DNA of 60,438 nt, filler included, from Nemertoderma westbladi (Eukaryota; Animalia; Xenacoelomorpha): NCBI GenBank assembly GCA_032718475.1. It is 3 parts of 3 records of this genome, joined end to end, with 100 filler letters (N's around TTAATTAATTAA, not from the genome) between each part and the next. Parts side by side here need not be neighbours in the genome. Positions count along the whole stretch, not along the records: positions 1 to 28,937 come from JAUCBJ010005646.1; 2 more parts are not named here. One strand, 5' to 3'. The translations under genes and the position numbers were made by a program. Under the pieces are notes generated by a model. It was not told the origin of the DNA. It did not search any database and worked only from the letters and a program-made list of their open reading frames with translations. How positions within the stretch are numbered: the first letter of the stretch is position 1; every line of letters begins with the position of its first letter. Shown here in pieces: positions 7,432 to 42,784 of the stretch.

Positions 7432-9962
7432 AATGCCGGTTGCTATTCTCTTTATATATGATTAAAATCAGTGACTATCGGCAATTCAGTGTGCAGCGGT
7501 GTGCAATAGTCTGTATGTGCTTGTCCGCGTAACAAAGCATCTCCTAAAGAATGCGTCTTATGTGTAACTTATAATCCATTCGTTGTGTTTAGTGTAAGCC
7601 ATAGCTCTGTTTATATAGATAGAGCGCCACATCCTAAAGGAACTGCTAATATTTCCCGAAAGTGAATAATATTTGTCAGAGATTATATATTAACGATCAA
7701 TCGAATAGTACGGTAGGCCTGCACCGCAATCAAATTAAAGCATCCGAATCCAGTCTCCCGGGTATATCCAGCGGGTGAATGGTCGCGCATAGACTGGCTT
7801 CGGCTAATGTTGGATTTATTTGTGTCAAATACTTGTCATAGGCTAAAGTCGATTTATAACCTAGAAGACATATAGATTTGGCGGGTTAAACTGCCAAAGG
7901 TCTTAAAAGCGCGAACAGCTAGGTATTGCTGCTAACCACCGTGGCAACAAAATTCTAGAATCAAATTTGTATACCAGATCAGCTAACGTACGGTAGCAAT
8001 TAACCCCTATTTCTTATCTTACAACCAGAATCTGGTATTTGTGCCGATTACGGGTGTAGTTACTAACACCGTAATTGCCCGGTTGAGTTGTGGATAGGAA
8101 GGAGAGAGCTTTGACGTCATTTTGTAAGTATAAAGTTCTACAGAGCGCGACTAGCTTATTTTCGTAGCTAGCGCACGGTATTGTTTCAGTTAGTAAATCA
8201 CTAAAACCTAGTACAATGGAGTACACCAAAATTGTTTTATTTGTAACACACCCACACACACACGCCCTAAAACATATGTACCCTTAGAGTTCTACTAGTT
8301 ATAGCTTACTTTAGATTACTTTCAGGCAGAATCTATTTTGTAATTTACTATTCGTAGTTTGTAAATTTAGGATCTGATATTTAGTTACGGCAAGAAGGAG
8401 TATTTACTTATTAGACTGTGTTTTCTAGCTCACAGTATTGTTACATTAGGCACGACCCCCTTTAGACTGATTAAGTACTGGTCAGTATTGTTATGCTAGT
8501 CTGTTAATCCACTAGCTCGTATATAAACCATATAAATCACACCGCGGCAAGTTACGGTATTTAGGTCCGTTAGCGATAGTTAGGATTTACTGCGCGGGGA
8601 TTGTTTTCCCGTGAGTTTGGTCTGTCACCGTAACTGTACATCTGCCTCACCGGTTAGAGGACAGGCATCCTTTTGTCTAGTTCGTAGGCATTAGACTCGC
8701 TCACGTACATAGAATAGACACTAGGCTCTGTTCCTCGCCAGTAGTTGTTCGCGTATTTGTATCTGTTTGTTTAGATATCCTGGACTGGGATTTGTTGTCA
8801 GATACTGTACGAGCCCGTATACATTACTGGATCTTACAGTAAGATACATCGTTACTAGGATCTGGTAAGCGGTATACTACTGGACTTTAGAGTAGGGAAT
8901 ATTCTAAAGCTTAATATTGGTAGATTTGTAGGCTTTAGGATAGTTCTTACCATAAAGGATCTCAAAGTAGGGAATATTTTATTAAATATTCTAAATATAG
9001 TTTAAATAGTATTTGTACTCTCTGAAAAGTGCATGCAATTTTCAGTAGGGAATATATATAACTATATATATATTATTAGCTATTGTAAAAGTAGGAGATA
9101 TTTACAATTTAAAATTAGTAAAGTTAGTAATTTGTAGAACGTCCCCTGCCAGTAGTCTTTTAGGGTAGCTAGTAGTTTCGTATTTAATATTTGACTAGCT
9201 AATAGTTAGTTTATAGCAATTTGTTTTACGCCGTGTGTGTGCGGTGTTACTTTTCGGTACTTGAAAAGGTACATAGGGTTTAAAGACCAAGTTGTATCGG
9301 TACCTAGGAAGATTTTCGTAGAGTAGAACTAAAACTCTCACCTTCGAATTTTCAGGACTCAAGGACTCATTTCTGGACCGCTTCGAGGGATTAGACCGCT
9401 TTTCGCAAAGTTTGGGAGACACAAAATTCGAAAAACGGAATGACCCACGTCCGGTTTTTTATTTGGGAATTTGCACGACTGGAAGATCAAAGGAGCGTAA
9501 GTTTTACGACTCGTGTCGTTCAAACTTAAGAGCACAGTAGTACTCAAAATTTGTGGGTTTCACTGTCTAATTAGTAGTGTTGTTGGTACTTATTTTCCCA
9601 TTATACGTTGCTGTTTTGCCTATTATTTGTACTTGTTGATCTACATTTTGGTAACGTATACCGTTATCTCACTTATTCGTACAAATTTAGCCGGTAGGCT
9701 AGATTATTACATATTTTATTATATACTTTAATTTTATTTGTACCGGTTAGGGTATATATATATGGTATATATATATACCAAGGTAAGTTTGACATTTCGA
9801 CATTTTGACATTTTGACATTTCGACATTCTGACTTTGTTAATTTTATTTGTACTGGTTAGGGTATATATATATAGTATATATATATACCAAGGTAAGTTT
9901 GACATTTCGACATTCTGATATTTTGACATTTTATTACCCGTACTTGACGTATATAATAAGAC

Positions 9963-12900
9963 ATGAGTGACACACCACATTCGACTCGATACCCACCTAC
10001 TGACTTGACTCGTGCAACCCGGACAGATCGACAGTAGATGAACCGAGAAGGAGAACCCGAGATTCCACCGATGTCACACCGCGTGCTTCGCCGGTACCCC
10101 AAATGGAAATACCGGAAGCCACAACGCGTGGCGATGGCAGAATCGAAGATTTCCTTACCGTCCCGCAGACCAGGTCATAGGAACCAGACATGGTAAGCTT
10201 GGCGGGAAGCCAAGAAAATGTTACTAGGAGTATAGGAGGACACATGGCCCAGATAACTCGAAACTTCGGAGAAGGTTTTTGCATTTTACGCGAGTTAACT
10301 GCCCCGATGTCGAGATACGAGTTCTACACCTTACAGGTAAGGATAGAAAGTAGGGTACATGCTTCTGTAGATAAACTTAAAGGTTTACACAAACTTGCAG
10401 AGTTGCGTGGCAACAACTTTACTCAGGTAAAGATAATCGATAAGTTGGTAAGTGCGAGGGAAAGCCTCATCCAGTTTAAATCAGTAGTAGGATTGGCTCA
10501 ACAAGAGCAACTCGACCAACTGATGGGTGAGTCTGTTTCCGACGCTTTGTTACAACCCGAAGAGGAATAAGAACTATATTGCCTGGACGGAAGGTTAGAA
10601 ACGCTCACCGATTTTCTTTGTAGATGCGGCGTACCGATCGAGGAACCGGAAGTCGAACCGCAAGGGACGACGGTAGTTCTAGTTACGGAAGGCTTGTGAG
10701 CCTACCCTGTTCCACCATTGGACCGATCATTCGTCAGCATACGGCGACGTTAGTAGGACGACGTTGGTGATAACTCGATAACAACAAGAGGTTGCACGCC
10801 GACAACAGGTCGCCGAGGAAGAAGCGCAACAACAGATGGCACAAGTTGCTATCGAGGGAGAGAGACAACGCCGAGAAGACGAGGTAAAGATCGCGAAACT
10901 TCAGGCCCAAGCAGAATTCGAGGCCTCGGAGATGCGAAGATTAAGAGAAGACTTAGCGCGAGAAGCCGCGGCAGCTGCAGCAGTGGACGAATTAGTGCGG
11001 AAGAAGGCAGCATCTGACGCTCGCGCTCAGTTGGAGGCGCGACAAATAAAAACTAGACTTGCCATTCATGAAGCGGAATTAGCAGCATAACAACAAGCGG
11101 CAGACCGACGCGAGAGAGAAATGCAACTCCAGTTCGAACTAGTGAACGCGCGAGAGGATCTCGAACTCGACACTAAGATCTCGAGCTGGACACGACTTGT
11201 CTGCATTGGATCGTATGGAAACTCGGTATCGCGGAATTCAGAAGCGAATCGAGGCAGGGAGTGTAGGAGCGATTGATAGAAGAGAGGAGTTTGTTGAGGA
11301 TTACTGCAAGCGTTTCTCTCAAGTTATCCCCATGATCAGACCTACAGTTCCAGCGAAACTGATCATAGTCATAAAACCGAAGGAGATATCACCTGTGCGT
11401 TCAACACAAGGTAACAGGTTTGTTGTGACAGTAATACCGCAACCTAGAGCGACATCATCACCGATTTTAGCAGGTAAGGTAAGTAGTCCACCTACAGTAA
11501 GCCGTAGTTTACTCGTAGGGAGAGAAACCTGTACTTATGACAGTTAAGCAGGTAAGTAAGCCATTAGCAATTAAACCTATAACGTGCTGCGCGAACCCAG
11601 TCATTTACAGACCGACTACGAAACCTGACTGTTTTACTCAACCATTGACACAGTGTGTAACGAGACCTACGACTTCGTGGAAGGCTTGCGAGCCTACCGG
11701 ATGACAAAGAACCGAGGACACTGAACAACAGACTAACTTCGTGGAGAAGATCCACAGGAACTTATCGAGACCTACTACTTCGTGGAAGGCTTGCGAGCCT
11801 ACCGGACGACGAAGAACCGAGGACGCTGAATAAAGACGGATGCAACCGACGAGAATGATACACTGGATGCGAACTCATCAGCCACCTTATCCGGACGACA
11901 GCGATACGTCTAGTGACTCAGAGTCGATGGAGAGGGAAATATTTCGTACTGGAGTGGCAGAGAACTACAAACGAGAGGAGAGATTGACGAATCCATATAT
12001 CGACAATCCTCCACGAGAAACACCTTGCAAAAACCCATGTTGCAACCAGCGGAAGCGATTAGCGCCAAACAGTATACTGAGATGGCGGACCGACTAGCTC
12101 AACTTGAAGAGCGACTCGAAGCGCAACCGTCGGATCGATCACGAACCAGCGTGTAGTTGGAACGATCGTCGACCACCACGGAGAGAATAGGAGACTAGAC
12201 AGAATCTGAACCATTTCCTACCGACGAACAACGCGCGGAAGGGAACGACAGGACGACGTAACTGAACAGGGACGTGGACAGTTAGATTTAGTTAGCGAGA
12301 TTGCTAAGTTTGCGGCCAGACACGGATTACCGGCACAACAACCACCGAAGTTCTCTGGCAACATGAAGCACTGGCGTACGCTGGTAGACTACATAGAGTC
12401 CCAGATCGCTAAGTGTGCCTTCACCTCGACGGAGAAGTTTAATTACTTGCTCCAAGATCTGTCTGGTGAGGCGAAACGATTAGCGGAGACCTTTATTGGT
12501 GTTCGGAATGCCTTTGAGTTGGTGTACGACCGCTTGTTTTCCATTTACGGCGGCAACGTAGCCATGGCTAAATCTATCATCAAAGACCTCTGTAGAGGAG
12601 GAAGCATTTCGAAACCGATCGATCTTCTACGACTCGCAGACAAAATCAAAAACTCTATAGGGACTTTACGGTCCATCGGACAACTCGAGTACACTAACGC
12701 ACCGATAGTTCTAATTAGAATAATCGGTAGACTCCATCATCAATTACGATGAGAGTGGCGACGTATTGAGTATCAGCGTGAAGAGGCCGGCGTGCTATTA
12801 AAACTCACCGACATCTATCAATTGATTTCACAAGAGGCCATGGTTGAGACGCGATCAAACTACACTGACCACCATATAGCGGCAGAAGGAATAGCGAATG

Positions 12901-13260
12901 CTGCGCCGTATCGGACCAAACCATTTCCAACCAACGCGAAAGCCGTGACTTATGCCACCCCAACAGACACTTCTAAGGTTCTGACGCCTATCGGCACCAA
13001 ACAGCCACGGCAACAGTTGCCGGCAGATTTTGAGGGATGCCCATATTGTGAGCGGAACGGCAGAAACCACAGCGGACATAAATTACGTGGATGTCGCGCC
13101 TTTAGAGAGTTGGGAGTTGAAGAGAGAAGACTCCAAATTCGACCATTGGATTCTTGTTAGAGATGTACCATGCCTGGACACATCCGGAAGGATTGCCCAA
13201 GCGACGATACATGTCCTCTATGTGGACGTAACCATGACATGTTACTCCACACGAATAGTC
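9963..13260 (+). pseudogene. gag: BEL/Pao gag (coiled coil, DUF1759-like capsid region, CCHC knuckles) with stops and frameshifts
   Basis: PKFSGN..., EKFNYLLQDLSGEAKRL, RLFSIYG; Cys/His motifs CPYC..H..C and TCPLCGRNH near 13040-13250. Confidence 0.85.
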
Positions 13261-13490
13261 ATACTCCGACTAAACGTTTTCGATGAGAGCATCCAGATAA
13301 AGCGGCTAGATGCGACGCACTTTATAAGGAGCGCGCACCATGCGAAATCCGTACTTTCTATACCTGACTGTATGGATCAATCCGGATCATCGGACAAGGA
13401 CGAGGAGGAAGACGACACCTTTTACGTGCATGCGGGGGAGGAACAACCATCCATAACACTCCTCACACAGAACCAATTGAAAGGGTTTGC

Positions 13491-16400
13491 GTGATTCCTA
13501 TAAAGATTACCGGAACACGAGGGAGCAAGCGTATATACGCTATCCTAGACTCTGCGTCATCGCATAGTTACGTCGACGAACAAGTAGCCAACGTAGTGAC
13601 TGACATGAGTAAAGGTAAGACTGCTCTGTATACTGTAAGCAGCATGTATGGTAAGAGAGCGATTCCTGTGACGAGAGTTAAATTAACTTTAGATACCCTT
13701 CTTTCCAAAGTGGAACACAGCAAGGAGGAGCACTCATTACTTCCGATAAGAAATTTGACCTTTGCAGCTATGATGGACTTTAGTAACTTGCTCGGCCCTG
13801 TGCCAGAGCAATCACCGGAAGATTGTAAGTATTTCCGACACATTGGAATACCGGAATGTCCTGTTAATTATCGCTCAATCGCGATGTTGATTGGGACAGA
13901 CCAGTTTAACTTACATCAGGTATGGGAGACACGCCCATCTGTTATTACAGCGGGCAACCCCTACACATGTAGAACTCCCATAGGTTGGTATACTAGAGCA
14001 CCAGTGCGTTCCCTAGAAGTAAGTGACCAGGAGGACGACATTTTGAGTATGTGTAGTTTACTGACTACTACAATAGATAATTCTCCTTCACATTCCTGTG
14101 GTCCAATTGTACAGACTGTACTACGACAGACTTGCGTCTCTACCACTGATGTAACTGATCTGGACACGACCACACGGACCTCTGACTTAGAGCTACTTGC
14201 AGCGACACAGGTTGTATTGACTACTGAAGACCAAAGGGTTGTTGCTGTGGATGACTCGATGAACGAGGGTTTTGGAAGGCTTGCGAGCCTACCAATAAAT
14301 CCAAAGGTCATTGACCCCACCCACCAGGCTTCGACACTGGTCGTTGATCTTGGAAGGCTTGCGAGCCTACCAACAGATCAAAAGAACTACGTTTCCATGC
14401 CGACTAGTGACACCGGGAGGCTTGCGAGCCTACCAGACACATTGACACTAGCCACCGCAGCGGACAAAGACATAAACGAGGACTATGGCGCAGTGCAAGC
14501 AGCGCTTGTCCAACTGCTAAATGAACGGACCATTAAATGGTTAGAACAGGACTCAGCAGAACCCGGTAGTTATGAGACCGCTATGTCAGAACCGGAAAAA
14601 CGGTCATTAAATATTATGAGAGATACCATTCGCCAGACCGCGAATGGCCACTACGAAGTTGGCATGTTGTGGCGCCATGGACAACTTAAGCTCATTAACA
14701 ACTACCCGCTTGCTTTGAGGCGACTCAAATCAATAAGGCAGTGATTGTTGCGTGATGAGACGGCCCATATGCAATACAATGCGCAACTTCAGACGTATCT
14801 CCAAAAGGGATATGCCATTAGGATGTTAAATCCCGAGGTAACCACAGATCAAACATATTACCTGCCACACCATTTTGTTCGACACCCGGACAAACCTGGC
14901 AAGGTGTGTGTAGTCAACGACTGCGCCGCGCTTTACCAAGGGATGTCTATGAACAGCGAACTGATGAACGGGCCGAATATGAATAATTACCTCATAGGAG
15001 TCCTAATGCATTTTAGACAACGCAAAGTGGCTTTCACCTGTGATGTAGAGGCCATGTTTCACCAGGTTAAGGCTTTGGAGCGGGACAGGGACAGTTTGAG
15101 GTTTCTTTGGTACCCAGACGGAAACTTAGAACTTCCGCCAGAAACTTACCAAATGCAGGTAAGAGTCTTCGGGGCCAGGGATAGCCCTAACTGCACCATG
15201 TACGCATTAAAGCAAACAGCATTGGACAGACGAGACCAATTTGACCCCGAAGTAGCTCGGACAGTAGAACGAGACTTCTATGTGGATGATGGCCTCAAGT
15301 GTTGTGACACTCTGGAGCGTGCTACGACCGTAGCGCATCAACTCCAAGATTGTCTCGCCGAGGGCGGATTTCGCCTCAAGAAGTTCGCTTCCAACGAACC
15401 CGAACTAGTAAACTCATTTGACCCGACGGATCACAGTGGAGGTGACTTGGACTTAGACCTAGAACCTCTACCTACGACCAAGGTATTAGGACTTAGTTGG
15501 GACCCGAACACCGATAACTTTAGGGTGCGTTTAAGGTCCAACGGACAGATTAGACCTCTCACTAAGAGGACTTGCTTATCGATCATGAGTCGATTGTATG
15601 ACCCACTGTGTTGCATTAGTCCAGTGATCCTACACGCCAGGATCATACTCCGCAGCATTTGGCAAGCCAGACTGGAATGGGATGATCCCGTCCCAGAAAA
15701 GTTAGCTGATCAACGGAGGGACTGGGAAGCCCAACTGACGTTCTTACAAGACTATACCATACCGAGGGTATACTTTCCTTTGCAGACCACCTTTCCTGCC
15801 GACTTGGAGCTTCACAGCTTCAGATACGCTAGTAAGGATGGACTGGGGGTTAGTTACCTTATACCTTAGACGACAAGTGACATCTGACAGCTACAATGTG
15901 TCTCTCGTTACTTCTAGGGCTAGAACAATGCCATTGAAGAATATGACTGTACCTCGTGGAGAGCTGCAAGCCGGGACGATATCCACCGATATTGTCAGTT
16001 TAGTTCAATGCGAGCTGGAGGCTAACTTGAAGGTCACGTATTGGACTGATGCGATGTTGGTACTTTGGTACATAAACAACAAAACATTTAAGTTCAAGAC
16101 TTTCGTAGCCAACAGATGGGCTGAAATATTGGACCGGTCGCTCAAACAAGATTGGCGTCACTGTCCAGGGAAACTGAACCCAGCTGACATCGCGTCATGA
16201 GGGATGCTATCTATTGACTTTTGTAAACCGGACAATAAATCCTTTTGGTTTAGAAGACCTGATTTCCTACAACGACCATCGGACAAATGGCCACCGTTAT
16301 TTGACGCGACAACTAACACCATACCGGAGGGTGCCGAGATAAAAATCGACACTGTTATTATACTCCAAAGCGAAAGCCAATGCCAAGGCAAGGTCAAGAG

Positions 16401-18800
16401 GAAACAAGGACGGATGAAATCTGATGACCTGGACGTTAGACCTGACATTACGCCAGACGTCTCACCAGACACTTGACCAGACGTTACTACGAATCTTTCA
16501 CTGGAAGTACCGTGGGAGATTTCACCAGACGTTTCGCCGGATTGTTCACCAGATGTCTCACCAGATTATTCGCCAGAAGCGACACCAGATTGTTTTCCGG
16601 AATATTCGCTAGATTGTTTTATGGAACTCTCGACAGATTGTCTACCGGACGTCTTGCCAGACTTTCCACCAGACATCTCAACAAACTGTCCACTTGACTT
16701 TGGACCAGACATTCTGACAGAAGCTACGCCAGACTTTCTTTGGGACAGATGACAGGACATTTCGCTGGAAGTTCCGCACTATGTCTCACCAGATGTCTCA
16801 CCAGACTGTTTGCCGGACGCCACACCAGACTGTCTACTAGACTTTCCACTAGACCCATTGGAAAGTAACGACGTGTGCTATAAGGACGCAATGAATCCAT
16901 TGGAGCGGACTAGTACACACCCACTAGGTATTAACAACTTACCGAATTTGACTTCCTTGGACAACGAAGGTGTGGGCACAGCGATCACACTCCACTCAAG
17001 GAAAATACTTGACTTACCGTCTACAGGTAAATGTGGGACTAAGGTTAGAAAGCTTACGAGCTCACAGGAACACACTAGTACTGTAGAGTTGAAACCATTA
17101 CTGCCAGTCAATTCACTGAGTGCGGACGGTAAAGGTAAGACCGTGGAGATTAAATTACTTCACGACTCAGACAAACCTATTGTACAAAGGGAGACACTCA
17201 CTGGAAGGCCCATGGGCCTACCAAGTCCGAACAAGTACCCACACTTTGACTATACCTTACCTGATGACGTCACTAACACTTACGTTGACAGGATAGTTAA
17301 CCTAACTAGATCATGGACTGACGCGTGCCGCAAGTTAGCATGGCTCAAACTTTTGGGACAATATGCCAAAGGCAAACGCAACTTTCCTAGAAGACTTACC
17401 TTGGAGGAAGTTGGTCTTTGTGAAGTTGATATTATTAAACATTATCAATTGCGATATTTCGCACGAGAGTTCACAGCGATCAATCAGGGTAAACAGATCA
17501 AGTCTTCACCAATCTTGAGTTGGAGTCCGATATTCTATAGGGGCTTACTTTGTCACAAGTCCAGACTCCAAAACATTGACTTCGCACTAGACTTTAGGTA
17601 TCCTATCATCATACCACAACACCATGAGTTACAGCGCGCTATGATACTGGTCACACATGTACGACTCAAACACGTAGGTAGCCATCACTGTCTATCACAC
17701 TTACGCTCGAGGTTTGTACTGATTAGGCCTAGCAAGGCATTGAGTTTGGTAACACGGAACTGTATGATTTGTAAGAAGGTGCACGTGAGGCTGAGGATAG
17801 GATACCAAGAAATTAGTGAACTACCACTAGCAAGATTACAGGCTTTTAGACCCCCTTTCACTGAGACAGGGATAGACTGTTTTGGACCCATAATCGCGAA
17901 ATGCGGGAGGGTACAGGTAAAACGCTGGGGATTGATCTTCTCTTGCATGGCCAGCAGAGCTGTCCATATTGAGCGTGAGACAGATTTAACCACCAACGTC
18001 TTTATCCTAGCCTTACGGCGATTTATCGCTAGATGTGGATTGGTCAAATCCATTTATTGCGACCAAGGAACTAACTTTGTGGGTGCACGGAATGAAATCA
18101 CCATAGCCTTAAAGAAGTTGGACCAAAACCAGATTTCCGATGAACTACGTCCTCACCTTATTGTCTGGAGCCTTAACACTTCTGACAGTCCGTGGAGAGG
18201 CGGCGTTTGGGTAAGACTGATTGGGTCAATTAAGACGGCTATGGCGAAAGTAATACCGATGCAACGCATCTTGACAGATGACCAACTGACGATGTTGTTA
18301 ATAGAAATTGAAGCGGTTTTGAATACTAGACCAATCGCTTTGATCCCAGACAACAAAGACTCATAGTTTGCCTTGACACCAGCGCACCTACTTATGCAGG
18401 CGCCGACGACATTGTTGCCCACTTCGGTACCTGTCGATGGCGACGGATACAGCAACTAAAGCTTGGAAAATCACTCAGCTGTTAGCCAACAAATTCTGGG
18501 AAATATGGCAGAAGCACTATTTGCCCTCTATTTCGGCCGGACCTCTTGGTATCCTGTGTTAATACCCGATGTTTGAGACGCGGTGACCACGTTTTATTGG
18601 CTGGAACGAATCTGAAAAGACGGTTTTGGCTGACTGGAGTCATTTTGACCACGCACCCTACATCTGGTGTAGTAAGGACAGTTACTATACGGACTATTGA
18701 CGGACGTACCGTAGATAGGCCTGTACAACATCTCGTGCTCCTTGAGGAGACTAGAAACGAGACAGGAGACTACAAATCTCCACCCAATCTTAGTAAATAG
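13491..18800 (+). pseudogene. pol: BEL/Pao pol: aspartic protease, RT, RNase H region, integrase, C-terminal DUF5641-like; disrupted
   Basis: AILDSASSHSY (protease); YYLPHHFV, DVEAMFHQV, FYVDDG (RT); LYDPL, TVPRGEL, YWTDA, WRHCPGKLNPAD; H..H..CMIC, GIDCFGP, YCDQGTNF (integrase); RTVDRPVQHL. Confidence 0.93.
16420..16860 (+). repeat. Degenerate 12-bp tandem repeat (CCAGAC-based, encodes PDxx) between RNase H and integrase
   Basis: Recurrent CCAGAC/CCGGAC at about 12-nt period; translation PDITPDVSPDT...PDATPDC. Confidence 0.7.
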
Positions 18801-19543
18801 AGATGTGGGACCCTTGATGGTCGCCACATAGCCTTACTGTATTTTAGTGATTTAGTATTTTGTATTACTGTATGTACATTTGTATTCCTTTTCACTGTAG
18901 ATAAAGGCAGTAGTGGAATTCCATTGTCTTTATATGTGAACATGGAGGGTAGTACCCTTATGTATCACATAGGAGCGGGGTTGTGTGTACAGTAGGAATG
19001 GAATTCCATTTGGAACCCACAAGTGAGACAATTTTTCAAAAAATTATTAGACAAATCCATTTGGTTGGATTTAAATTTAAGAAAAACGATTCTCCAGTGG
19101 ATGCGAATTCTAGGATACAGCTAGATAAAAATTAAAATTGGGGAGGACAAGAGCGGATGAAAGGCTTGCGAGCCTACCAATAAATTTTTTTGGAAAAGAA
19201 AATCAGCCTCGTTCTACATAGTCATGAGTCTACTATTATTTTAGACCAAATTAATTCTCGACTGCACTATTTTTCTTTGGGAAAGTAGTTTGGGAAATTA
19301 AAAGGTGAGTATTTTAGACTCGCGGCTTGTTTACCCGGAATTCGTTTTTTATCGGCACATTTTTTTGGATTAAGAGCCAGTGCGAAATCACGCGAAACCC
19401 GAAGTCTTAGGCAAATGGGTAGGGGTTTTAGAGCAAAGTTGAGCAAAAGCCAACAAAACTCTAAGTCTCCTCACATCTAACCTCTATTTGTGCTTCATCT
19501 AGTAGAATGTAACGATACATAACCATATATATACGCATATATG

Positions 19544-22500
19544 ATGGCGGAGAAGATTTACAAGGAGTGACGTCAGGGATTTACGCAGCAGCAGGAGCAC
19601 CAGGAACCATTTAATCGTTATGGAGCCAACCAAACTTTAACGTGTTTGGAGTGGAGAGTATGGCTAGGAGTACAGCCAAGCTTGCTAAATCCAAGGCGGA
19701 CCCGAATGTTACGCGACAGCGGTTGGACGCTTATAACAAAAGAGCGGAGGAGCTACGCACGGAGTTCAATGCGTTGTACTCCTATGATGTGTTATGCGAC
19801 GCTAGTGACATTTGTGAGGATCCAGACATGGAGATACGCCGATTATATCACACGCTGCAATATTTGACGGCGAGTGAACCCTTGCCTGCAGCTAGGGACG
19901 AATTCGATGGAATGCATCTTTATAGATGCGCTCGAGGAGTGGATCCAGAGACCAAGGATGCGTTCTCCATTTATAAACTGTTCTATAAATGTGGAGGATG
20001 TATGCGTGAGCAAGACAATGCGATTCCTATGCGCTTGAACTCGGAGAACCCCGAGTTGATATTAGCACGATGTTCATACCACCAAAGTCTGCGTTACCAA
20101 GAAGGCGGATACCCTTTGACGAATCCATACCATTCGTTTAAGATGAGTGGACCAAATACAGGCGAAATTGTTATTTATGAACCCAAATTAGTCGAATCAG
20201 ACGTCTATAGTATGATAGTGGACGAGTCTAATAAGTCGACACAAGAGAAATGGGAAGCTTTGAGCCTCTATAGGGCGTACAAAGCGTACGAGAAAGGCGA
20301 GATCGAGGAGTTCGGCGGAAGGCTCGCAAGCCTACCATTTTATTGGATATCCTACGATCAAACTGAACCTAAGGAGATGACACCCGAACTCTTCGATAGT
20401 ATCACCTTTGCTCAGCGTTTGTCGCAGAGACTAAAGATACCTCATGTCGAGATGATGCGAGAACCTCAGCCCCATCCTAAAGCGGTAGTACCAGTCGCGA
20501 GACCAACCAGCTTTCCTATTAGTATACCAACCCGAGAGGAGACAACTTACGAGATTCCCATAGTTGAACACCCAGAGATCATTTCGAACCTGGATTTCCT
20601 CCCATCGGTTACGTTTGGTGATGTGTTAGAGGCAGCGGAGTTGCGTAGAACAATAGTTCAGAAAATCGTACGCAACGTGCCTCCACATATTACAGACTTT
20701 AAGGAAGTGGATCGCGCGGGGACGGATATCGCTCCTTATATCTTGCGAGGATATCTAGCGAAAACGATTCGATTATGGATCGGAGTCGGCACATTCGAAA
20801 CCGACACCGACATTGCGATCAATTGGAAGGGGAAACCTATTAGTTTCGATGACGAAAAGTCCATAGGGAGAATTTTGAACCCTACTGACGATTTACTCGA
20901 CGATTGGGACGCGACGAGTCGATCTCTGCAGGAGAACGGTTATATGTTTTATGATAATGAAGGAGGAAGCCATCAGCAGAGCCTCACTTCAAAGACCATA
21001 CAGATTCGAGCACCTGACGGAGTGCTACACGTCTTCAGCCGACAGAGGAGCGATAGAAAGATGCCTATGCCGGAAGGAACGACGCAAAGACATGCGATGA
21101 TAAAACAGATAATTAAATCCATGGACCTGGCTTGTAGCATAGAAGCTAGGATGTTGCCAAAGGCCGTGCGTGACGTTATACTTGATAAGAGTATCGTCAA
21201 GATCGGATCCGGTGTACGGGAGGACCTTATTAGCGATTTTGCGGGAATGCCCGAGGAGGATCGATTGCCTACGCCTTACATGGATACTAGACCATTGTTG
21301 CTTTGGGCTATCGAGCAAGGATATTTCAGGGAGTATAACACGCTAAAAACTGGAACGGGTTATATCTCATATCTTATGTTCAGTTGGGACTATAAAGAGA
21401 GTAAGAGGAGCAAATACACGGATGTATATGGTGAGGGAGATACCCCTGGCGTAAACGAGTTTGAGTCACAGTTGAAGTGGGAGGTTGCGTGTATTGGGCG
21501 ATTACCTCACCTCCACGAATAATCTTGCAATACTATTTGGCGATTGAATCTTCGGTGAACGTATGCTTCATCGCCGATGTAGTGTCTAGGACTCTAAAGC
21601 GACATCCATTATGTCTCGGTGAAGGATATACCATTTACGACGGAGGAAGGATGCATACTGATGTATTCCGCCGATTTCTCCAACCCTTTTATAACACTGA
21701 TGCGCACTGCGAAGTTTTCACCCGAGCAGGACTTAGCATTTTTAGGGACGTTTATCTCACTCACGCAGGAAGCCTAGTCGACAGACCGTCGATGTTGACG
21801 TTAATACCCTACGACAGGGAACGCCACGCGGAGTTCAAAGGCCCGGAAGGATCCTGGAAGGCTCGCTTGCCTACCGCCCATCATGACGATGAGGATCCGA
21901 CCGAGTCCGCGTTAATAGACGAGCCGTTGCGGCAACTTATAGAAATAGAGGAGAACCTTCCGAGGAAGATGCGAACCAAGATACGTGAATTAGAGAAAAC
22001 GACGCCATGGTTTGTGTACAACCTACGGAGACGAACGTACCGACTGACCCGGATGATGAGAATTATCACATGGACGGTAGCGCTCGCCCCATCGGAGATC
22101 TCATCTATGAGCGAGTTTGGTATCCTGCCAACACCATTTGTGGTAGATGCGGGGCTACTGGCCATCACGCAAAGAAATGTGGAGCGAAACACATATTTCT
22201 ACCAGATTTAGTATGCAACTGGTATGGGGATCAACGTTCACACACTTTCTACACCTGTTGGAGTTTCGTGGCTCAGTGCACATATTGCAAATTAAAGGTC
22301 ATAGGGCATCCGAGTGCCAACTTAGGGACGTTCCCTATGAGCATAAGTCAGTTAAGATTATTCGACAGCTATTCGACCATTGGGAGAATCTAGCAGACAA
22401 ACATGTGTCGATGCAGCGACGCTGTTTCCCCATGAGAGCGCATTTGGGATTTTGGGCCGTAAACCCTCTCATTATGTCGAAGGAAGGATACGTGTCAGCT

Positions 22501-22818
22501 ATGCCTCAATACGATGAACTTTTAGAGGTGCTAGATATATTGCCGTTGGATAGCGGTTTCAAGGTTGTTAGGGACTACTTCCTACAGGTACACCCTGACA
22601 ATAAGAACACATGGAGTTTTCAGACTGTGGTGAACAAGATTACCGCCGGAGAGTTCGATAAATTGCGAGTCGAACAGCGGAATCGAGGAGTCTGGCATTC
22701 GATAGCTTGGGCATACCGGAGCGCATTTTATCACAAACGCGTAACCTCATGTATCTTAGATGAGGTGGACGTTTTGCGTGAGACTGGCTTCAAAGCCACG
22801 CCGTTAGCCAAAAGGTAA
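19544..22818 (+). pseudogene. Family A accessory ORF3: N-terminal unknown region, DEDDy 3'-5' exonuclease-like domain, 3 CCHC zinc knuckles, conserved C-terminal tail; frameshifted
   Basis: GYMFYDNEG (ExoI), LPKAVRDVILDKSIVKIGSGVREDL (ExoII), YMDTR, QYYLAIE (ExoIII-like); CGRCGATGHHAKKC, CNWY..H...C, CTYCKLKGHRASEC. Confidence 0.75.
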
Positions 22819-22990
22819 ATTTGTATTTTGTATATATGTATGATAGATCGTACCTGCAATATTAAGTATGCAATAGATAGACAGTGATTATTTTGTATTT
22901 TAGGCCCACTATTAGACCTAAGAGATATTTAGTCAATTGTTTGTATTTCGATTGGTGAAAACAATCTTACTTACTGTTTTCAAGGAGCGG

Positions 22991-23554
22991 TGATGGATTA
23001 TTTCACTGTCAAGTAGCATTTGTAGTGTAACGTAAAAACTTTCTAAAACCCGACGTATTTTGATTTAATTACAGTAATGTAATATGCCTACTCATATTGG
23101 TACACATTAATTCATAGATGACTCTATTGGCGCAGTGGTCAGATGGTTAAGGCGTTGGTTACATTACAGGTAGGTTACGAGTTCGAATCCCAGTCGGGAA
23201 ATTTGCATTTTTGGGCTATTTATTTTCGATCTGATTGATTAGATAAGCCAATGAGGTGCGTACAACATGTGGAATGATGAGTTGGGCCAATCATAGGGCA
23301 TATAACATCTTATTGCTCCAATGTGAGGCCATGAATGCTCTGGAAGGTTCTAGTGAATTCTATGTCATTGATTTGCTATATAAGGGCCGGTTTGCCTTCA
23401 GTTATCACCTCACTTATCACCATTATGTTATCTTAGATTATCACCCTTTAATCTGTTAACTTTGTTTCGAATTCTTTTGTAAATTACATAAATATACTGT
23501 AAACTTTGAACATGTATATTTTGTCTTGTCCACCATTGGGACAGCCAAACATTT
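22991..23554 (+). repeat. Family A LTR (3' boundary approximate)
   Basis: PPT at 22982-22990, TGATGG start, homologous to 4205-4904 but with one rather than two copies of the CCAAT-box unit. Confidence 0.75.
23122..23200 (+). ncRNA. tRNA-derived Pol III A/B-box cassette in the second family A LTR
   Basis: TGGCGCAGTGGTCAGATGGTTAAGGCG...GAGTTCGAATCCCAGTCGGGAA at the same LTR position as 4690-4768. Confidence 0.7.
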
Positions 23555-24754
23555 GGGAGATGGCTGCTTAAACCATTAGGCCGTCAGCAACGCAGGGAGA
23601 AGATGTCCAAAACACGCTAAGCGCCCGCATTAGATTAGCCCGCGCGCCCCCTTCGCCCCCCTTCGAAATACTCCACCTTGCCATGCAGCACCCGTTTCAG
23701 AGGAAGGTAAGACTTTGTTTGACGCCCTTGCCTGCCGTAAGACCTATAGATCAGGGTAAGCGTGACGCCATCCTGGGACGCCGCAAAATTTAGGATCAAA
23801 TAGCTCAGATTCAGGCAGAACCCGTACTAAAAATCCCCGGATTAACCTGTATTCCCTACAGGTGTGAACTATTGCTGTTCTTCAGTACGCAAGTACACTT
23901 TAGGTACAGACAGCATATGTTCCATAATTTAGTGATTTGTAGTACTGACAGTTTGGTACCGGTTCACTTTGTAGCTTATACATTAGTACCCACCCCCCTG
24001 CTTGAGCCCGCGTTACTTGATCAGGCAAGGAGTATTTCTGCTACTGGCACATCCTTGGCCTAGGGAGGTTTTATTAATATCCTACCTCGCCTTGCCACGT
24101 ACTGATAGGTATTGCTGCTAACCACCGCAGCAACAAAATTCTAGAATCAAATTTGTATACCAGATCAGCTAACGTACGGTAGCAATTACCAACTATTTCT
24201 TATCTTACAACCAGAATCTGGTATTTGTGCCGATCACGGGTGTAGTTACTAACACCGTAATTGCCCGGTTGAGTTGTGGATAGGAAGGAGAGAGCTTTGA
24301 TGTCATTTTGTAAGTATTAAGCCCTACAGAGCGCGACTAGCTTATTTTCGTAGCTAGCGCCGGTATTGTTTTGGTCAAAATTCACTAAAACCTAGTACAA
24401 TTGAGTACACCAAAATTGTTTTATTTGTAACACACCCACACACACACGCCCTAAAACATATATGCCCTTAGAGCTCTACTAGTTATTACCTACTTTAGAT
24501 TACTTCAGTAAGGATCTACGGCAGTTTTACTATTTGTAGTTTGTAAATTTAGGAGATATGATATTTAGTTTATGGCAAGAGGAGTATTTACTTATTAGAC
24601 TGTTTTTTCTGCCGACAGTATTGTTACTTTAGGCACGACCCCCTTTTGACTGATTTAGTACAGTCAGTATTGTTACGCTAGTCTGTTAATCCACTAGCTC
24701 GTATATAAACCATATAAATCACACTGCGGCAAGTTTACAGTATTTGGGTCCGTT

Positions 24755-24787
<33 letters not shown>

Positions 24788-25894
24788 GGTCCGTTAGTGA
24801 TAATTAGGATTCGCTGCGCGGGGATTGTTTCCTCGTGAGTTTGGTCTGTCACCGTAGACTGTACATCTGCCTCACCGGTTAGAGGACAGGTACCGGTATC
24901 CTGTTTTGTCTAGTTCGCCGGGCATTTGACTCGCCCACGTATTAGAATCTGTTCCTCGCCAGTAGTAGTTCGCGTATTTAGTATCTGTTTATTTAGACAT
25001 CCTGGACTGGGATTTATTGTCAGATACTGTACGAGCCCGTATACACTACTAGATTTTACAGTAAGATACATCATTACTAGGATCCAGTAAGCGGTATACT
25101 ACTGGACTTTTCAGTACTATTTTGTATTTTTTTGTACTTTTTTGTACAGATTCGTCGGACCCATTTTATATTATAAGTTTTAACGAAGTTGTTATTTCTG
25201 CTGCAAATTGCGCAGAGCAGCTAAGAAAACTTTATATATTTGTTTTAGATTTTTACTTTAGACTTCATTTTTACTTCACCAACCCACTCGTATTCGATAA
25301 AGGTAGGCCTACCAGGACTGGTTGATAGAATCCCAAAAGCAGTACTGCAGTTGGTGCTTGTACAGGTAGTTTCCTTGAAACAAAACCTCGGTTTATTCGA
25401 GGATTAAACGCGGAATTCCGCAACAACTCGAGCAAGGTGCTCGTTATTATAATGCTTGTAAACAGTGCAGTGTACTGATACAATGGGACTTCCATCATTA
25501 CCAGTACAGTCAGACTCTCCGATCTCGATTCTCTGCCACTTATTTCTATCTTGTCCATTATAGTAAATAATCCCTGTATCAGAATAATTGAGGTAATGTG
25601 TTTTATTTTAGTTTCCTTATCCAAAATGGCCAGATAATCATGTTTGTTTGAGCTAACCGCATCCAGCACCACTTGTCCAGTTCGGCGTGGTCTGATATTC
25701 TGTATAAAACGCACTCCAGATTCTCAATTGCAGAATTGGGTAATCGATTCGTTCTTTGCCTGTAGTAAGCGATTTATTAGGTCTGCTGTCTGTCTACTTG
25801 CGTTACTCATTGTATCAAACCACAATCATCAAGCGATGCACCGATCAGCCGAGGCGGTACTCTGTGGTGCAGAGCAGTATATAGGCCCTTACTG

Positions 25895-34205: not shown

Positions 34206-34675
34206 GGTATGTATAATATAAATATTAGTTAGTAGTGAGTAGCGAGAGGGGGGCATATGAGTACAGCTGGATAAATCGTGTAGGCCACGCGACGCATACT
34301 GCTGTACTGCACAAGCCCACAGAGTAGGCCAGAATGTGGATTATGAAGTAGAGTAATCCATTGGCAATAGTAAGTAATAGCACAGTAGTAGGATTGAATT
34401 AAATTAAAATAAATGAGAAATTAGAAAATCAACAAATTATGGTAACAGTAGAAAGTAAATTCTGGAACATAATTAAAGTAACGGACAGAATTGTAATTTA
34501 GGGCACAATTTGACAGTTTCAGAAACAAAGTAGTAAAATTTAGGCTATAACTCAAGAGTAAGTAGGAAATAGGCCATTGTCGAACTGTACAGACCATCTT
34601 AACCTTATCACTCATCTGTACTGCTGCGCCTTGGCAAGGCACCACCTTACAGGTGAGCGAGTGAGAGAGTTCAGA

Positions 34676-37237
34676 ATGGCGGGGAAACTGATCAGGAAGA
34701 GAAAGGCGGAGTCAGGAGGAAAGGAGATACTACTCATCAAGAGGCATCCGGAAGAGAAGACGAGGGGATACTATGAGCGGTTAGAGAGAGGTCACGCAGC
34801 GCAAGCGCTACAGGACCATTTCAGGGAGGTGCACGAACAGCGGCTGGTTGGGACCTACGGGACGCCGTCGCTGGACAACGCGATCTTCGAGCATTTCCAC
34901 TACGTCGTGAAAGGAGATGAGGCGAAGTTCGGGATTCCGAAGTACGCGAGAGAGCCACCGAGGAAAGATTGGAAGAGGTTCGTAGAGTCCGTCAGCAGAG
35001 AAGGGTACATGGTCCTAGACGATGAGGCGACCGTGGAAGACGATGAGGGTTCGAGGAGAGGATCGGCGGGGTCGGCCAGAACCATACTCCTACATTTGGC
35101 CGTGCCAAATGGAGATATATTCCTATTCGATCTAGGAACGTATGGAAAGAAGGACGGGCCGAAGTTGAACCGGTTGCCGAAGGCGGTGCAAACCTTAGTG
35201 AGAGAGAAGTCAACGACGAAAGTGGGATTGGCGATTAGCGACGACGCGGAGAGAATCATCGGTCCGGACACCCCCAACCTTCTGGATATGCAGACGGTCT
35301 ATATGGCTATGACAGCACCAGACAGGTTGAGACTAGTGGAGAACACAGGACATTGCGGGGCGGTGGCAATGGGCCAGCTAATGGGGCTCGTGTGTCTCAA
35401 ACCGATGGACTGGAGTAAGTTCAGAGGGGAGTACGGAGCGGACTTGGCGAACTCGCTGAAGTGGGGAGCGAGGCCAGGGAGACAAGAGGTGTATCAATTC
35501 CGGAGAGGAGCGATAAATGTATATCAGAAGCGATATATCCTACAGGAGGACTGAATAATGATGGGTTTGCTTAACCTATTCATGACCGTGGTTATCGAGA
35601 GGGAACCAACGGCATTCCTATTATCGGGATCACCCCTAAGCTACAGAAGAGCCTTTAAGACGGCTTTCGAGGGTCTGGTAGACCACCCGGGGCTGAAGGG
35701 CGAGTCGGTATACTATAACATCCGACATCTGGTAGACAGGGAGGTGGATACGCCGTATCAGAGGTGGGAGCAGTTAGAGACGGATAGACGAGAGAAGAAG
35801 CGATTGGAAGAAATCGCTAGACAGGAGAGGAGAGAAGCAGAGGAAAGGGAGGAGGAAGCTAGGGCACAGAGCTACGGCTTCAAGGAACAGGCGGCCTTAG
35901 ACGAACTTCGTTGGACCTCATCAGGGAGTTCGGGGGAGTCTCTAGGATGAGAATTAGGATGGACGGTGGGATCACCGAAACAGTCGACGTCGGGATTGCA
36001 GACGACGCCCATACCAGCAGGCGCCGAGGGCGATCGGCCGCTAAGGAGGCTAGGGGAGCTAGAAGGATGGAAAGTTATGGGCGAGAGCCAAGGCGGGAAG
36101 GGACACAGTGGGTCCACCGGGATACCGGGGTTGGAGCCGCTGCCAGAGGAGGACGAGGATGACGGCGAGTTCGGAGAGATGCCGCCCATCGGGAGGATCG
36201 GCCACTCGGACACGGACTGGGTTGGCGGGAGAGTGGTGACGGCCAGCGGGGTGAGGGCCTTCTGGGATAGACCCGGCAAGCGGGCCTGGGTGCATGAGGA
36301 GCCGGTGATGGATTTCGCGGGGAGCACTATCAGGTTGGGCGAGCAACCGGGGACGGCACCACGGATAGTATTCGGGGAGACGATGCCTGGGAGGGGCGAG
36401 GAGATCGACGTAGACAGGGACGCTAACGTCCGGAAGTTCGCTTACCAGCGACTCCACAGACCGCAGAGATCGCTTGGGATGAAAGACGACGTGGGGCGGG
36501 AGACATTGGTGCTCGGCTGTGACTACTGTGGGAGACAGACCCACCAGGAAAGGAGCTGTTTGTACCGGTTCCAGAATGGGACTAGTTGTCTCTACTGCCG
36601 CAAGTCGAGCCACAGGATGGGGGCGTGTCCACGGTTGCACAACCAATGTTCGAAGTGTAACTTTCGGGGACAATACGGACGCCAGTGCGACTGGAGGGAC
36701 GACGAAGAGAAGTTTAGGGTCTTCGAGGAGTGGGCTGACGTCGGAGCCATGACTCGGCAACGCATGAAGGCCCAGGAGTTCCGGTGGGGCTTCTTTAACA
36801 TCAATCAGGAGGCCCACATGGAGATTATCAAACGGAGGCTTCCGTTTACCTACCAGGAAGTGGCGACGGCGGCGTCGTATGCCGGAGTGATAAATACGCA
36901 GAGGTATTTGGACAGGTGGATGCCACAGAACAGAGGAGAGTTCAGGGATTTCTTGGCGGAGCATGTGCCGCGGGCGATGAAAATGATCCTATGGGACGCC
37001 ACCAGGGGGAGACATCAGGGCCATTCGGAGGGGCCACCCGCGAAGCGATACCGGGAGCTAATAACACCAGCACCCAAGGAGACGACGACTGGGATTAGTA
37101 AAGAGGTGACGGCGAGGGTCAGGAGCCTGAAAGCAGACAAGACCAAAGGAGCGGCAGTGACCAGGAAACGACCAAGGGAGGAGGATGATAGAGGGAAAGA
37201 GTTGAGGTGGTTCCCAAAGGCAGGTGGAACGGACTAA
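34676..37237 (+). pseudogene. Family B accessory ORF: DEDDy exonuclease-like domain, 3 CCHC zinc knuckles and WGF tail; interrupted by stops
   Basis: GYMVLDDEA, LHLAVPNGDIFLFD, LPKAVQTLVREKSTTKVGLAISDD, LLDMQ, QKRYILQED; CDYCGRQTHQERSC, CLYCRKSSHRMGAC, CSKCNFRGQYGRQC; FEEWADVG...WGFF. Confidence 0.8.
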
Positions 37238-37934
37238 GACACCCATGTGATATGCCTGGAAGGCACCACGCGAGACGTGCGAACTCCTAAGTACGAATTC
37301 AAGTTATTTAAATAATTGAAAAGTGCAATTAGTATGTACGTGCGTAGTAATCATTATTAGTTTAGCAAGTAAATACAATCAAAGTAAGTACTATAGTCGT
37401 ATAACCTTTTCTCAATTAGCTACTGGGACTGGGGACCAATAGACTATAATACTACCACGGACGAGACACTCGACGACATCACACTTCTTGAGTGCGACGG
37501 TACGGGAGGGGGTGAAACTCGTCGGGAGTGAGTGGGAGAGATAGGGGTTGAGTTGTAGTGTGGATAGACTGCGGGTGCAATTCAAGTGTGGGGGGGGGGG
37601 GGGAGGAATAAGAGGCTGAGTGAGGGACAGGGAAGTCCGGGAGTTAGAGCGGGAGTGAGGAGAAGTAGAGGAGAGTCAGGGTGAGAACAGAGTGGAGTTG
37701 GAGTGGCGAAAGTGCTGGGGAAACAAAAGTCGTGTGAGAGGAGCGCACGATCGGCCCGACACGGGACGCCAGGTAAACAGGGTAGCGATATCATACCCAT
37801 AGGGGGCGGTCTGGAAAGCCGGCTCCGAGGAAAATAGTTCCACCCCACACTCGATACTAGGTCGAGATCCAGCGGAATTGTCGCGCACTAGAGGTGGATG
37901 CTATCTTCTCACCGGGAAGATAGCATGGGGGGAG

Positions 37935-38506
37935 TGTTAGCGTATTCAATTCCGCTAGCCAGGCCCACACAGAGTTGGTTTTAAGCAATATTGGGAGCAC
38001 GAGGTTGGTTACCAATCAACCTCGTGTCACCCCAATAGGCGGGGACAATAGGCCCCAAGGGAACACACACAGCGGGGGTCAGAGGTTACACCTCCGGGAG
38101 GGAGAGAGAGACAGCAGCGGGGGGAAGTACTCCCAGGGAGATGGGAGTGTGACAAGTGAGTTATTAGCCAATGGGGGGGAGGCATCGGCTGAGTAGTGTA
38201 ATGCGGCCAACCGGTGCAATATATTACCAGTAACCGTGTTATTCATTCACTCATTAGCTAGCCAGTTCAGTTAGGGTAGGACGGCAACTTTTATTACCAT
38301 TCAGCCGTTTATTCATTCATGTTGTCTGTATACTGCAATTACTAACTGCATTCGCTATAACTGTGCTTATACTTTATACCATTTTATATTATATACATAC
38401 CGAGCGATTAACAACAGGAAATCTAATAAACTCTTTTCACACGGCGGGACGCGTAAATAAATCTAACCACCGGATAAACCGGGATCCTCTATCTGATCCC
38501 GTCACA
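37935..38506 (+). repeat. Family B 3' LTR
   Basis: TGTTAGCG...GATCCCGTCACA with AATAAA near 38425; homologous to 41291-41861 and 48074-48680. Confidence 0.88.
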
Positions 38507-41290: not shown

Positions 41291-41861
41291 TGTGACGGGA
41301 TCAGGGGATCCTGACTGGTTTGTTTTCGTTACGCGTCGCCACTCGTTGTGAGAATATAGTTAGTTGTTGCTGTTGTTCTGATATTGTTAATGAATAAGAT
41401 ATAATATAGTAGCAAGAAATATATATGTAAGTACGATAAATAACGTTGTACCGGTAGTGGTGGTGACGGCGGTGACGGTACGAAAATGTCACCTAACTGC
41501 ACTAATTAATGACTGAGTAAACTGAACAACCGACCGGTAGCAGGACAATATATATGTATGATTAGTACACTACTACGGCCTTCGTCCAGTGGATACTCTC
41601 CCCCCTGCTCTCATTGGCTGTTATCCCACTTCTCGCCTCCACCTCTGTGGGAGTGCTCCCCCCCCTCGCTGCTGTTACTTTCCCTCTCCCAAGAGGTTTG
41701 ACCTATAACCTCTTTTGTGTGGCTCTTTTGGGCCGTATGTTGTGCCCGTTATTGGGGGTGATACGAGGTTGATTGTAATCAACCTTGTACTCCCCAATAT
41801 TGCTTAAAACAACACTTCCCAACTTTATGGGGTCGGTGGGGCGGAATTGAATCCGCTCACA
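41291..41861 (-). repeat. Family B 3' LTR (minus copy)
   Basis: TGTGAGCGGATTCAATTCCGC...GATCCCGTCACA on the minus strand, with a poly-G PPT at 41862-41877. Confidence 0.88.
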
Positions 41862-42784
41862 CTCCCCCCCCCCCCCATGCTATCTTCCCGGTGAGAAGAT
41901 AGCATCAACCTCTAAGTGCACTTCAATTCCGCTGGAAACCCGACCTACTATCGGGTGTGGGGCGGAGTTCTCTTACTTTGGAGTCGGCTTTCCAGGCCGC
42001 TCCCTATGGGTATGATGTTACTACCCTCTCTTGGTGCAACCGCAACCTATGTTGCACCAAGTCACCTGGCGTCTCGGTTTGAGACAATTGTGGATTTCTC
42101 TCACACAATTTTAAAAAGCTCTCTCACTCAAACTCTAACCTCTCACTCTAACTCTCCTCTAACTCCACTCTAACTCCACTCTTACTCTCTCCCCACACCT
42201 GAATCACACTCGCTGTACTCTCCACCACTCCCAAAGGCGCTAATCTTATGCTACTACACTGTGCTATCATTCTATCTACTTACTACTTACTTGCTACTTA
42301 CTCCCTAATTCTACTAACTCTCTAACTCTAACTAGCTCTCTTAACTCTACTAACTCCTAACTTTACTAACTCTTCTAAGTCTACTAACTCTAACTAGTTC
42401 TCTAACTAGCTACGTGGCGCTTTCGGTGCCCACAACCACTCTGCTACTACCTCTATCTACGTGGCGCTTTTGGTGCCCACAACCACTCTGCTTACTACTC
42501 TCTACGTGGCGCTTGTGGTGCCCTTACCCGCCGACTTCTAATACTCCTATTGACTCCTAACTTTCTTACTATCTTACTTCTACTAACTTTCTGACTTTCT
42601 ACTTACTATCTAGCTTCTACTAACTATCTGACTACTAACTTCTTGCTATCTTCTACTAACTTTCATACTTCTAACTTTCTACTTACTATCTTCTACTTAT
42701 TTATTATTTTAATTATTTTATTTTATTTTATTTAAATAATTATTTGTGTGTGGGAAGGGCGTCTCGCCCTCATTCCCACCCCCC

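Follow-up and report, generated by a model that had tools for sequence, protein, structure and literature searches.

Env is present in few BEL/Pao retrotransposons and is the only extra gene named in the available part of PMC3118150, in which the word 'exonuclease' does not occur; the word is also absent from PMC13524379. The closest described accessory genes are those of bdelloid rotifers, in which the Juno and Vesta LTR elements and the Athena/Terminon elements carry a DEDDy ORF3 with the signature DEED, and the available text of Rodriguez et al. 2017 (PMC5408684) gives it no known function. These reports are repeated in PMC6431247, likewise available in part, and in PMC6338049. A second precedent is Trypanosoma brucei RNase D (TbRND, PDB 7c42), a cellular mitochondrial enzyme in which a DEDD 3'-5' exonuclease domain is followed, after a 28-aa linker, by a C-terminal array of four CCHC fingers. 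The array provides RNA binding and strongly raises the trimming of U-tailed guide RNAs, and overexpression of TbRND causes guide RNA levels to fall, according to the accessible portion of PMC7797062.

The window, the whole stretch of DNA analyzed here (60,438 nt in three joined parts), is repeat-rich and, judging from its BEL/Pao elements, of animal type. It contains element A1, which is a BEL/Pao LTR retrotransposon with a DUF1759 gag and a PR-RT-RH-IN pol containing Peptidase_A17 and DUF5641. The earlier note had assigned the host to this group and the Pfam matches agree: besides DUF1759 (Table 1), pol matches PF05380 (Peptidase_A17, E = 1.4e-19 and 3.8e-9) and RVT_1 (E = 0.004), and the integrase matches Integrase_H2C2 (E = 0.009) and PF18701 (DUF5641, E = 1.3e-7). 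The element has TG...CA ends and a polypurine tract (PPT), and its 5' LTR is truncated. The start of the 3' LTR was placed where it is because similarity to A2, a second copy of this family on the minus strand that consists only of a 5' LTR and gag, begins at the same TG. The A1 copy is old and dead, because its LTR pair is 85.8% identical and both gag and pol are broken.

Table 1 Features of the accessory ORFs and their host elements in the window.
Feature	Positions	Strand	Basis or remark
A1 5' LTR, surviving 3' half	7912..8903	+	85.8% identity to 24098-25116 over 1040 columns
Two tandem perfect splice-donor motifs (AAG/GTAAGT), leader upstream of gag	9780..9898	+	Candidate donor, putative use
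A1 gag (broken), with DUF1759 and knuckles of BEL type	9961..13300	+	PF03564 E 1.4e-10; open pieces of up to 180 aa
A1 pol, broken; protease, RT, Peptidase_A17 (Pao RNase H region), integrase with DUF5641	13368..18800	+	Pfam
Candidate splice acceptor (CTAAC branch motif, pyrimidine tract, TAG)	19475..19502	+	~40 nt before ORF3 ATG; putative use
A1 accessory ORF (ORF3), ~1090 codons	19544..22818	+	ATG 19544, TAA 22818, 3275 nt
A1 ORF3 N-terminal region, no assigned family	19615..20900	+	No Pfam match
A1 likely DEDDy (WRN/EXD2-like) 3'-5' exonuclease domain	20900..21560	+	Motifs, ESM Atlas, small profiles
A1 three zinc knuckles	22139..22317	+	First canonical, second one Cys short, third frame-split
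A1 purine tract (PPT), abuts 3' LTR	22982..22990	+	Similarity to A2 begins at next TG
A1 3' LTR, ~2.1 kb, TG...CA	22991..25113	+	76-83% identity to A2 5' LTR (4905-2623, minus strand)
C accessory ORF, homologue of A1 ORF3, 854 codons, one frame	34676..37237	+	Internal stops 35552, 35948
C exonuclease-like domain	~34970-35560	+	D 35018, E 35024, D 35243, Y 35534, E 35546
C purine tract (37927-37934) and 3' LTR (37935-38506; 572 bp, TGT...ACA)	37927..38506	+	LTR family shared with D and solo LTR 48074-48680
Element D, kin of C: BEL/Pao-type gag and protease; no RT, integrase or accessory ORF	41291..44990	-	Pfam, DNA identity

The accessory ORF (ORF3) of A1 lies between the integrase stop at 18800 and the purine tract plus TG at 22982-22992. 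The ~3.2-kb frameshifted ORF that had been reported after the integrase is indeed there, damaged by one stop (19568) and by changes of frame at four places (near 19570-19640, 21480-21520, 21990-22030, and 22290). Its longest open piece is 635 aa, whereas the pieces in 500 Markov-resampled controls have a median of 121 aa and reach at most 250 aa. The N terminus is hydrophilic and contains, at ~19810-19923, a 38-aa motif with 39% identity to an ORF at 5441-5929 (score 86; the highest of 200 shuffles is 49). Weak matches to Pfam DUF7386 and Peptidase_Mx and to NCBIfam entries were below their own cut-offs and were set aside. There is no hydrophobic segment in A1 ORF3 (top 19-residue Kyte-Doolittle mean 1.48; 1.37 in the accessory ORF of element C) and no furin-type RX[KR]R site. 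An env (fusion glycoprotein) identity is rejected for this hydrophilic protein, which has no TM segment in A1 or C and no furin site in A1, and the same conclusion had been drawn in the earlier note. A1 has the same core domains as the env-bearing BEL/Pao elements in the available part of PMC3118150 and, like them, a third ORF ahead of the PPT, but it differs from them in these properties of the third ORF.

The expression signals around A1 gag-pol have the layout of an env-type spliced message. The pair of donor motifs in the leader is also found in A2, at 1741 and 1843, and the leaders of this family supply four of the seven matches in the window, with 1.7 expected, a count that is inflated by duplication. 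The candidate acceptor is the only one in the 745 nt between the integrase stop and the ORF3 ATG (background 0.45 per kb); the same filter detects no acceptor upstream of the accessory ORF of element C. A donor and an acceptor flanking gag-pol suggest that ORF3 may be expressed from a subgenomic RNA.

A scan of long window frames for motif order unexpectedly returned frame 34562-35551 at rank 1. This frame belongs to element C, whose accessory ORF is homologous to A1 ORF3. It has no frame changes, and a single frame encodes the exonuclease-like domain, a linker, three knuckles, a C-terminal region, and a basic, NLS-like tail, which confirms the domain reading of A1 without frame repair. The exonuclease regions of A1 and C are 25% identical (score 75 versus a maximum of 62 in 1000 shuffles), and the knuckle and C-terminal regions are also related (66 versus 57, 1000 shuffles). 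Element C is cut upstream by a LINE, and no RT or IN was seen in the window for the family of C and D. Element D shares an LTR with C and is 67-87% identical to it in DNA on both flanks of the accessory ORF. The C family is probably BEL/Pao-like, judged from this kin copy, whose matches to DUF1759 (E = 2e-4) and Asp_protease_2 (E = 4e-4) are both below cut-off. This second family with the same gene had been missed by the earlier note. D and A1 are 19% identical in gag (15/78) and 31% identical in protease (22/70), and the accessory ORFs of A1 and C have diverged to about the same extent, so the accessory gene either dates from about the time at which the two families separated or passed between them in the distant past. 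The absence of the accessory gene from D indicates that it is not needed in cis.

The DxE, LP..V..V..DK...K.G....D, D, and Y..xE motifs reported earlier in the middle domain sit where they had been placed, within 20947-21548. FYDNE occupies 20947-20961, LPKAV..DK...K.G..RED occupies 21154-21225, and YLAIE occupies 21534-21548 in the next frame, giving D 20953, E 20959, D 21223, Y 21534, and E 21546 as candidate catalytic residues. The DxE of ExoI and the Asp of ExoII have the order and spacing expected for DEDDy enzymes in both A1 and C, and they are kept among copies. The putative ExoIII, placed by eye, is YxxxE instead of YxxxD in A1 (21534) and in C (35534). The active site therefore appears to read D-E-D-E rather than D-E-D-D in both families, with the fourth ligand assigned by eye. 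The domain has the order of DxE, LP..L..KVG....D, and QxxYxxx[D/E] found in WRN, EXD2, and mut-7 (PF01612, DNA_pol_A_exo1) but differs from these proteins in falling below Pfam detection, in its insertions (~35 aa between strand 3 and ExoII in A1), in its apparent last ligand, in a longer spacing before ExoIII, and in its fusion to knuckles and unassigned domains.

Remote homology methods point to the same family. PF01612/WRN-like clusters were the top result in the ESM Atlas for the A1 domain (0.93, 173/256 features, 24/30 matches) and, in a separate query, for the C domain (0.95, 195 features, 25/30 matches); the chance rates given by the tool are 4-10% at 0.9 and 1% at 0.95 and do not refer to protein parts. 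The C and A1 frames ranked first and second by ordered-motif score among the 28 window frames of at least 170 aa (14.2 and 11.3; next 1.7), and none of 400 shuffles reached the A1 score. The motif blocks were picked after the motifs had been seen, the script failed to put ExoIII on YLAIE, and the A1 and C scores of 10-14 are under the 21-54 of true members. A two-sequence A1 and C profile searched against 177,635 PDB sequences had EXD2 as its sole match (E = 1.5, with E up to 10). The same profile scored above 5 bits with 29/135 bacterial WRN-like proteins (a redundant set), 0/22 NrnC-like proteins (an inferred label), 0/16 RNase D proteins, and 1/257 decoys. A WRN-like profile gave 9.1 bits for C and 3.8 bits for A1 (shuffle maxima 3.7), confined to the ExoII stretch, and in a six-frame search of the window the A1 frame was outside its top 8. 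NrnC-like, RNase D, and mixed bacterial profiles did not single out ORF3 (best rank 4, E = 3.3).

Standard searches returned little. Pfam and NCBIfam left the exonuclease domain of A1 and C unmatched, and the DNA_pol_A_exo1 hit proposed as a check is absent from both at E up to 10. PDB phmmer returned nothing for the domain, and hhalign gave probabilities of only 2.9% and 7.6%. No homologue of the A1 ORF was found by word-based sequence searches of 349-1112 aa proteins, by phmmer against 1.84 billion representatives (0 matches), or in IMG/VR and metagenomes. There was one phage match (E = 3), and the best E among 101 bacterial genomes was 0.03 per genome. AlphaFold models of the A1 and C domains had pLDDT values of 38.5 and 36.8 and were unusable; fold searches with the second of these poor models returned only weak, unrelated structures (best E 0.054; best Z 3.7) and were uninformative. 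The DEDDy identity that the earlier note had called established stands as likely on the ESM Atlas results, the motif order, and the small profiles, but Pfam, NCBIfam, phmmer against the PDB, and the homologue searches gave no match. The middle domain very probably has a DEDDy fold and is likely a remote relative on the WRN/EXD2 side that falls outside Pfam membership. If the fold is right, an active enzyme with Glu replacing the fourth Asp is fairly probable.

The zinc knuckles follow the exonuclease-like domain in both elements. The first A1 knuckle, 22139-22180, is a canonical CX2CX4HX4C and gives a Pfam zf-CCHC match at an E of 0.014 that is below cut-off. The third has all four ligands, but they lie across a frame change. 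The C knuckles begin at 36518, 36587, and 36647; the first and second are canonical, the third lacks its His, and the spacing is the same as in A1. The array of three that the earlier note had described in A1 holds up because the C homologue carries one at 36518-36688, whereas in A1 itself only the first knuckle is canonical. Taken together, A1 and C have a predicted array of three tandem CCHC knuckles. An origin of the knuckles in the gag of the same element is unsupported, the similarity scores being weak and generic.

Other copies of the gene were examined in public sequence data. The stretch is represented in four DNA runs that come from three studies, and 4003, 6023, 3250, and 174 contigs were aligned to 16900-23700. 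Contig depth is present in 30/30 bins of this interval at similar levels over integrase and ORF3, and contigs of the four runs cover the whole of ORF3. A one-off insertion had been raised as a possibility; ORF3 is present in all four runs, and its homologue in a second family shows that A1 ORF3 is not such an insertion. No contig listed extends across all of 16900-23700 or the whole integrase-ATG spacer, and one bridges 18720-19059; we infer that ORF3 is linked to pol in other copies.

Differences between the contigs and the window distinguish two patterns. In the 635-aa frame, the 12 best-supported differences (nearly all contigs versus the window, drawn from the best 40 of 805 rows) are distributed 4, 5, and 3 over codon positions 1, 2, and 3, which matches neutral decay of the window copy. 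For the exonuclease core (20925-21245), every row with a share of 40% or more was counted, 24 rows at 23 places, and the places are distributed 7, 1, and 15. The excess at position 3 has a binomial P of 0.002 and the deficit at position 2 a binomial P of 0.001, and the distribution differs from that of the 12-difference set (Fisher P = 0.03). The FYDNE and GVRED codons are free of these differences, and the rows include no indel. Contigs that are 11-17% diverged over ORF3 show few gaps. This test is a position count rather than dN/dS and covers 321 of 3275 nt, and it points to past purifying selection on active lineages. The accessory-ORF copies within the window are dead.

Like the bdelloid ORF3s described in the available text of PMC5408684, the gene is an additional ORF that follows pol where env would lie and is without TM or coiled-coil env features, and it has a likely DEDDy-type domain with an apparently altered catalytic signature in more than one family. 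The rotifer LTR precedent cited in the earlier note (the DEDDy ORF3 of Juno and Vesta) is borne out by the same source. That text names the Juno, Vesta, TelKA, and Mag clades as hosts and leaves BEL/Pao unnamed, whereas the host here is BEL/Pao; the signature is DEED there and apparently D-E-D-E here. It does not describe a knuckle array in the bdelloid ORF3s, placing knuckles in gag and pol and a Cys-His-Cys motif in Vesta2/5. The ORFs reported here have 850-1090 codons with further unassigned regions and were compared with the bdelloid ORF3s by description only. The order of a DEDD 3'-5' exonuclease domain and a C-terminal CCHC array is that of TbRND (PMC7797062, in part), but ORF3 belongs to a mobile element and has three knuckles after a linker of 190-320 aa. 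This likeness is one of layout, not sequence, and may be convergent. A literature search largely confined to the main text of open-access papers found no exonuclease ORF in BEL/Pao and no DEDDy-knuckle ORF in a retrotransposon. The kind of gene is already known as a DEDD accessory ORF3, and the apparently new features are the BEL/Pao host, the WRN/EXD2-like subtype, the apparent D-E-D-E site, the knuckles, and the occurrence in two diverged families.

We tentatively propose, at a probability of roughly 0.45, that ORF3 is a conserved BEL/Pao accessory gene for a likely RNA-binding 3'-5' exoribonuclease that blunts host restriction at the RNA level. The observations behind this proposal are the location of the gene after integrase and before the PPT in two families that have diverged deeply, the shared domain order, the lack of env features, the third-position bias among copies, and the retention of the acidic motif residues. 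The protein would be made from a spliced subgenomic RNA, like env. Its three knuckles would grip single-stranded RNA while the WRN/EXD2-like two-metal domain trims the RNA 3' end, and trimming would counter RNA-level restriction of the element by the host. The enzyme might act on small guide RNAs, on the precursors of these, or on short tails that have been added to the RNA of the element. RNA is the presumed substrate by analogy with the trypanosome RNase D. EXD2 relatives act on DNA too. WRN relatives do so as well, according to the available text of PMC5408684. It is somewhat doubtful that the two families represent a BEL/Pao clade with a counter-defence RNase, a D-E-D-E exonuclease with knuckles built like TbRND that would predate the split of families with ~20-30% protein identity and would destroy small guide RNAs or strip host-added tails.

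A role in replication is rather unlikely. ORF3 would then be an active 3'-5' exonuclease inside the particle, with nucleic acids of the element itself as its substrates. It would trim the primer, cDNA 3' ends that are frayed or non-templated, or the end of the genomic RNA and so ease strand transfer and integration, with the knuckles tethering the nuclease to genomic RNA like a nucleocapsid. The profiles place the domain nearest to the WRN/EXD2-like subfamily and not to RNase D, the knuckles weakly resemble gag knuckles, and the C tail is basic and NLS-like, all of which would suit this role. Rodriguez et al. 2017 also suggest 3'-end processing of element RNA by the bdelloid ORF3s (PMC5408684, available text). 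However, gag and pol alone suffice for most BEL/Pao elements (PMC3118150, available part), and an ORF3 that stands apart from pol, behind an env-like acceptor, is more suggestive of independent expression than of a part of the polyprotein.

Less probable still is a catalytically weak or dead adaptor, in which the DEDD fold would be a scaffold, as in EXD1 or Maelstrom, and would serve together with the knuckles to bind RNA of the element or to sequester a silencing factor of the host. The apparent Glu as fourth ligand in both families, the A1 insertion before ExoII, and a domain that has drifted past HMM detection are consistent with lost activity. Dead DEDD derivatives usually lose the acidic ligands and the Tyr, but here the four acidic positions and the Tyr are apparently kept despite only 25% identity between A1 and C, and the ExoI and ExoII codons are free of majority variants. 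Inactive DEDD derivatives are employed by piRNA pathways (PMC5408684, available text). Chance motif likeness in another fold, or captured host DNA without function, would fit the absence of a significant database match and the unrelated hits of the poor-model fold searches but is very unlikely given the second-family homologue with the same domain order, the codon-position bias, the scarcity of gaps in the diverged contigs, and the convergence of two separate ESM Atlas queries on one family.

Accessory genes reveal the pressures on retrotransposons. That a different DEDDy subtype with knuckles has been retained under past purifying selection in two BEL/Pao families of deep divergence speaks for the usefulness and the repeated acquisition of such nucleases. 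ORFs of this type go undetected by Pfam and could be missed or wrongly annotated as env. Together with its structural analogue TbRND, ORF3 offers a concrete case in which to ask whether transposons encode enzymes against small-RNA silencing. If the counter-defence reading is true, ORF3 would be a transposon-encoded enzymatic suppressor of RNA silencing.

The tRNA-like segment in the U3 of the LTR of family A, a BEL/Pao family, was present in both copies and contains look-alikes of the consensus Pol III A- and B-boxes. ARAGORN and Rfam returned no match to this segment. Summed contig depth rises there, which suggests a SINE-like repeat. A 30-nt poly-T run at 24757-24786 in the 3' LTR of copy A1 is missing from the other LTR copies, has a short duplication on its flanks and looks like a truncated non-LTR insertion.

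Features located in the window
Feature	Position (strand)	Remarks
tRNA-like segment, family A U3	23129-23200 (+); 4690-4770 (-)	
Family B 3' end	4914-6710 and 6710-7440 (+)	broken ORF, then purine tract and LTR
In-frame 12/24-nt tandem repeats	16440-16860 (+); 32996-33094 (+); 43158-43269 (-)	pol; P-D/E-x-x-P tracts
Solo LTR, family C/D	48074-48680 (-)	TGT...ACA ends
RT fragments and GIY-YIG ORF	30328-33176 (-); 45003-46391; 55595-56710 (+)	
262-aa Cys-containing frame	27353-28141 (-)	Thr-rich stretch inside
Tandem arrays, 10-bp and 36-bp units	52842-53994 and 58043-60183	

The solo LTR is flanked by a 5-bp duplication with one mismatch and adjoined by a duplicated empty site. The coding repeats occur in pol of both families and lie in the RNase H/integrase interval in A. 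Among the RT stretches are non-LTR fragments, which match RVT_1 at E = 4e-38 and 5e-28, and one fragment that carries inverted repeats; the GIY-YIG ORF (E = 0.007) is Penelope-like. A Pfam search of the 262-aa frame gave nothing over the cut-off, and the frame is possibly a host exon.

Family B, a third LTR family, is truncated upstream by A2, the minus-strand copy of A; its purine tract (6702-6709) is followed by an LTR beginning with TG. The broken ORF of B shares a 38-aa N-terminal motif with the accessory ORF of A and matched neither exonuclease nor knuckles, and the motif is absent from the accessory ORF of C, the second family with a homologue. A basic tail ends the accessory genes of all three families. 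B has the N-domain only, A combines N-domain, exonuclease and knuckles, and C has exonuclease and knuckles, so that these accessory genes look modular in build.
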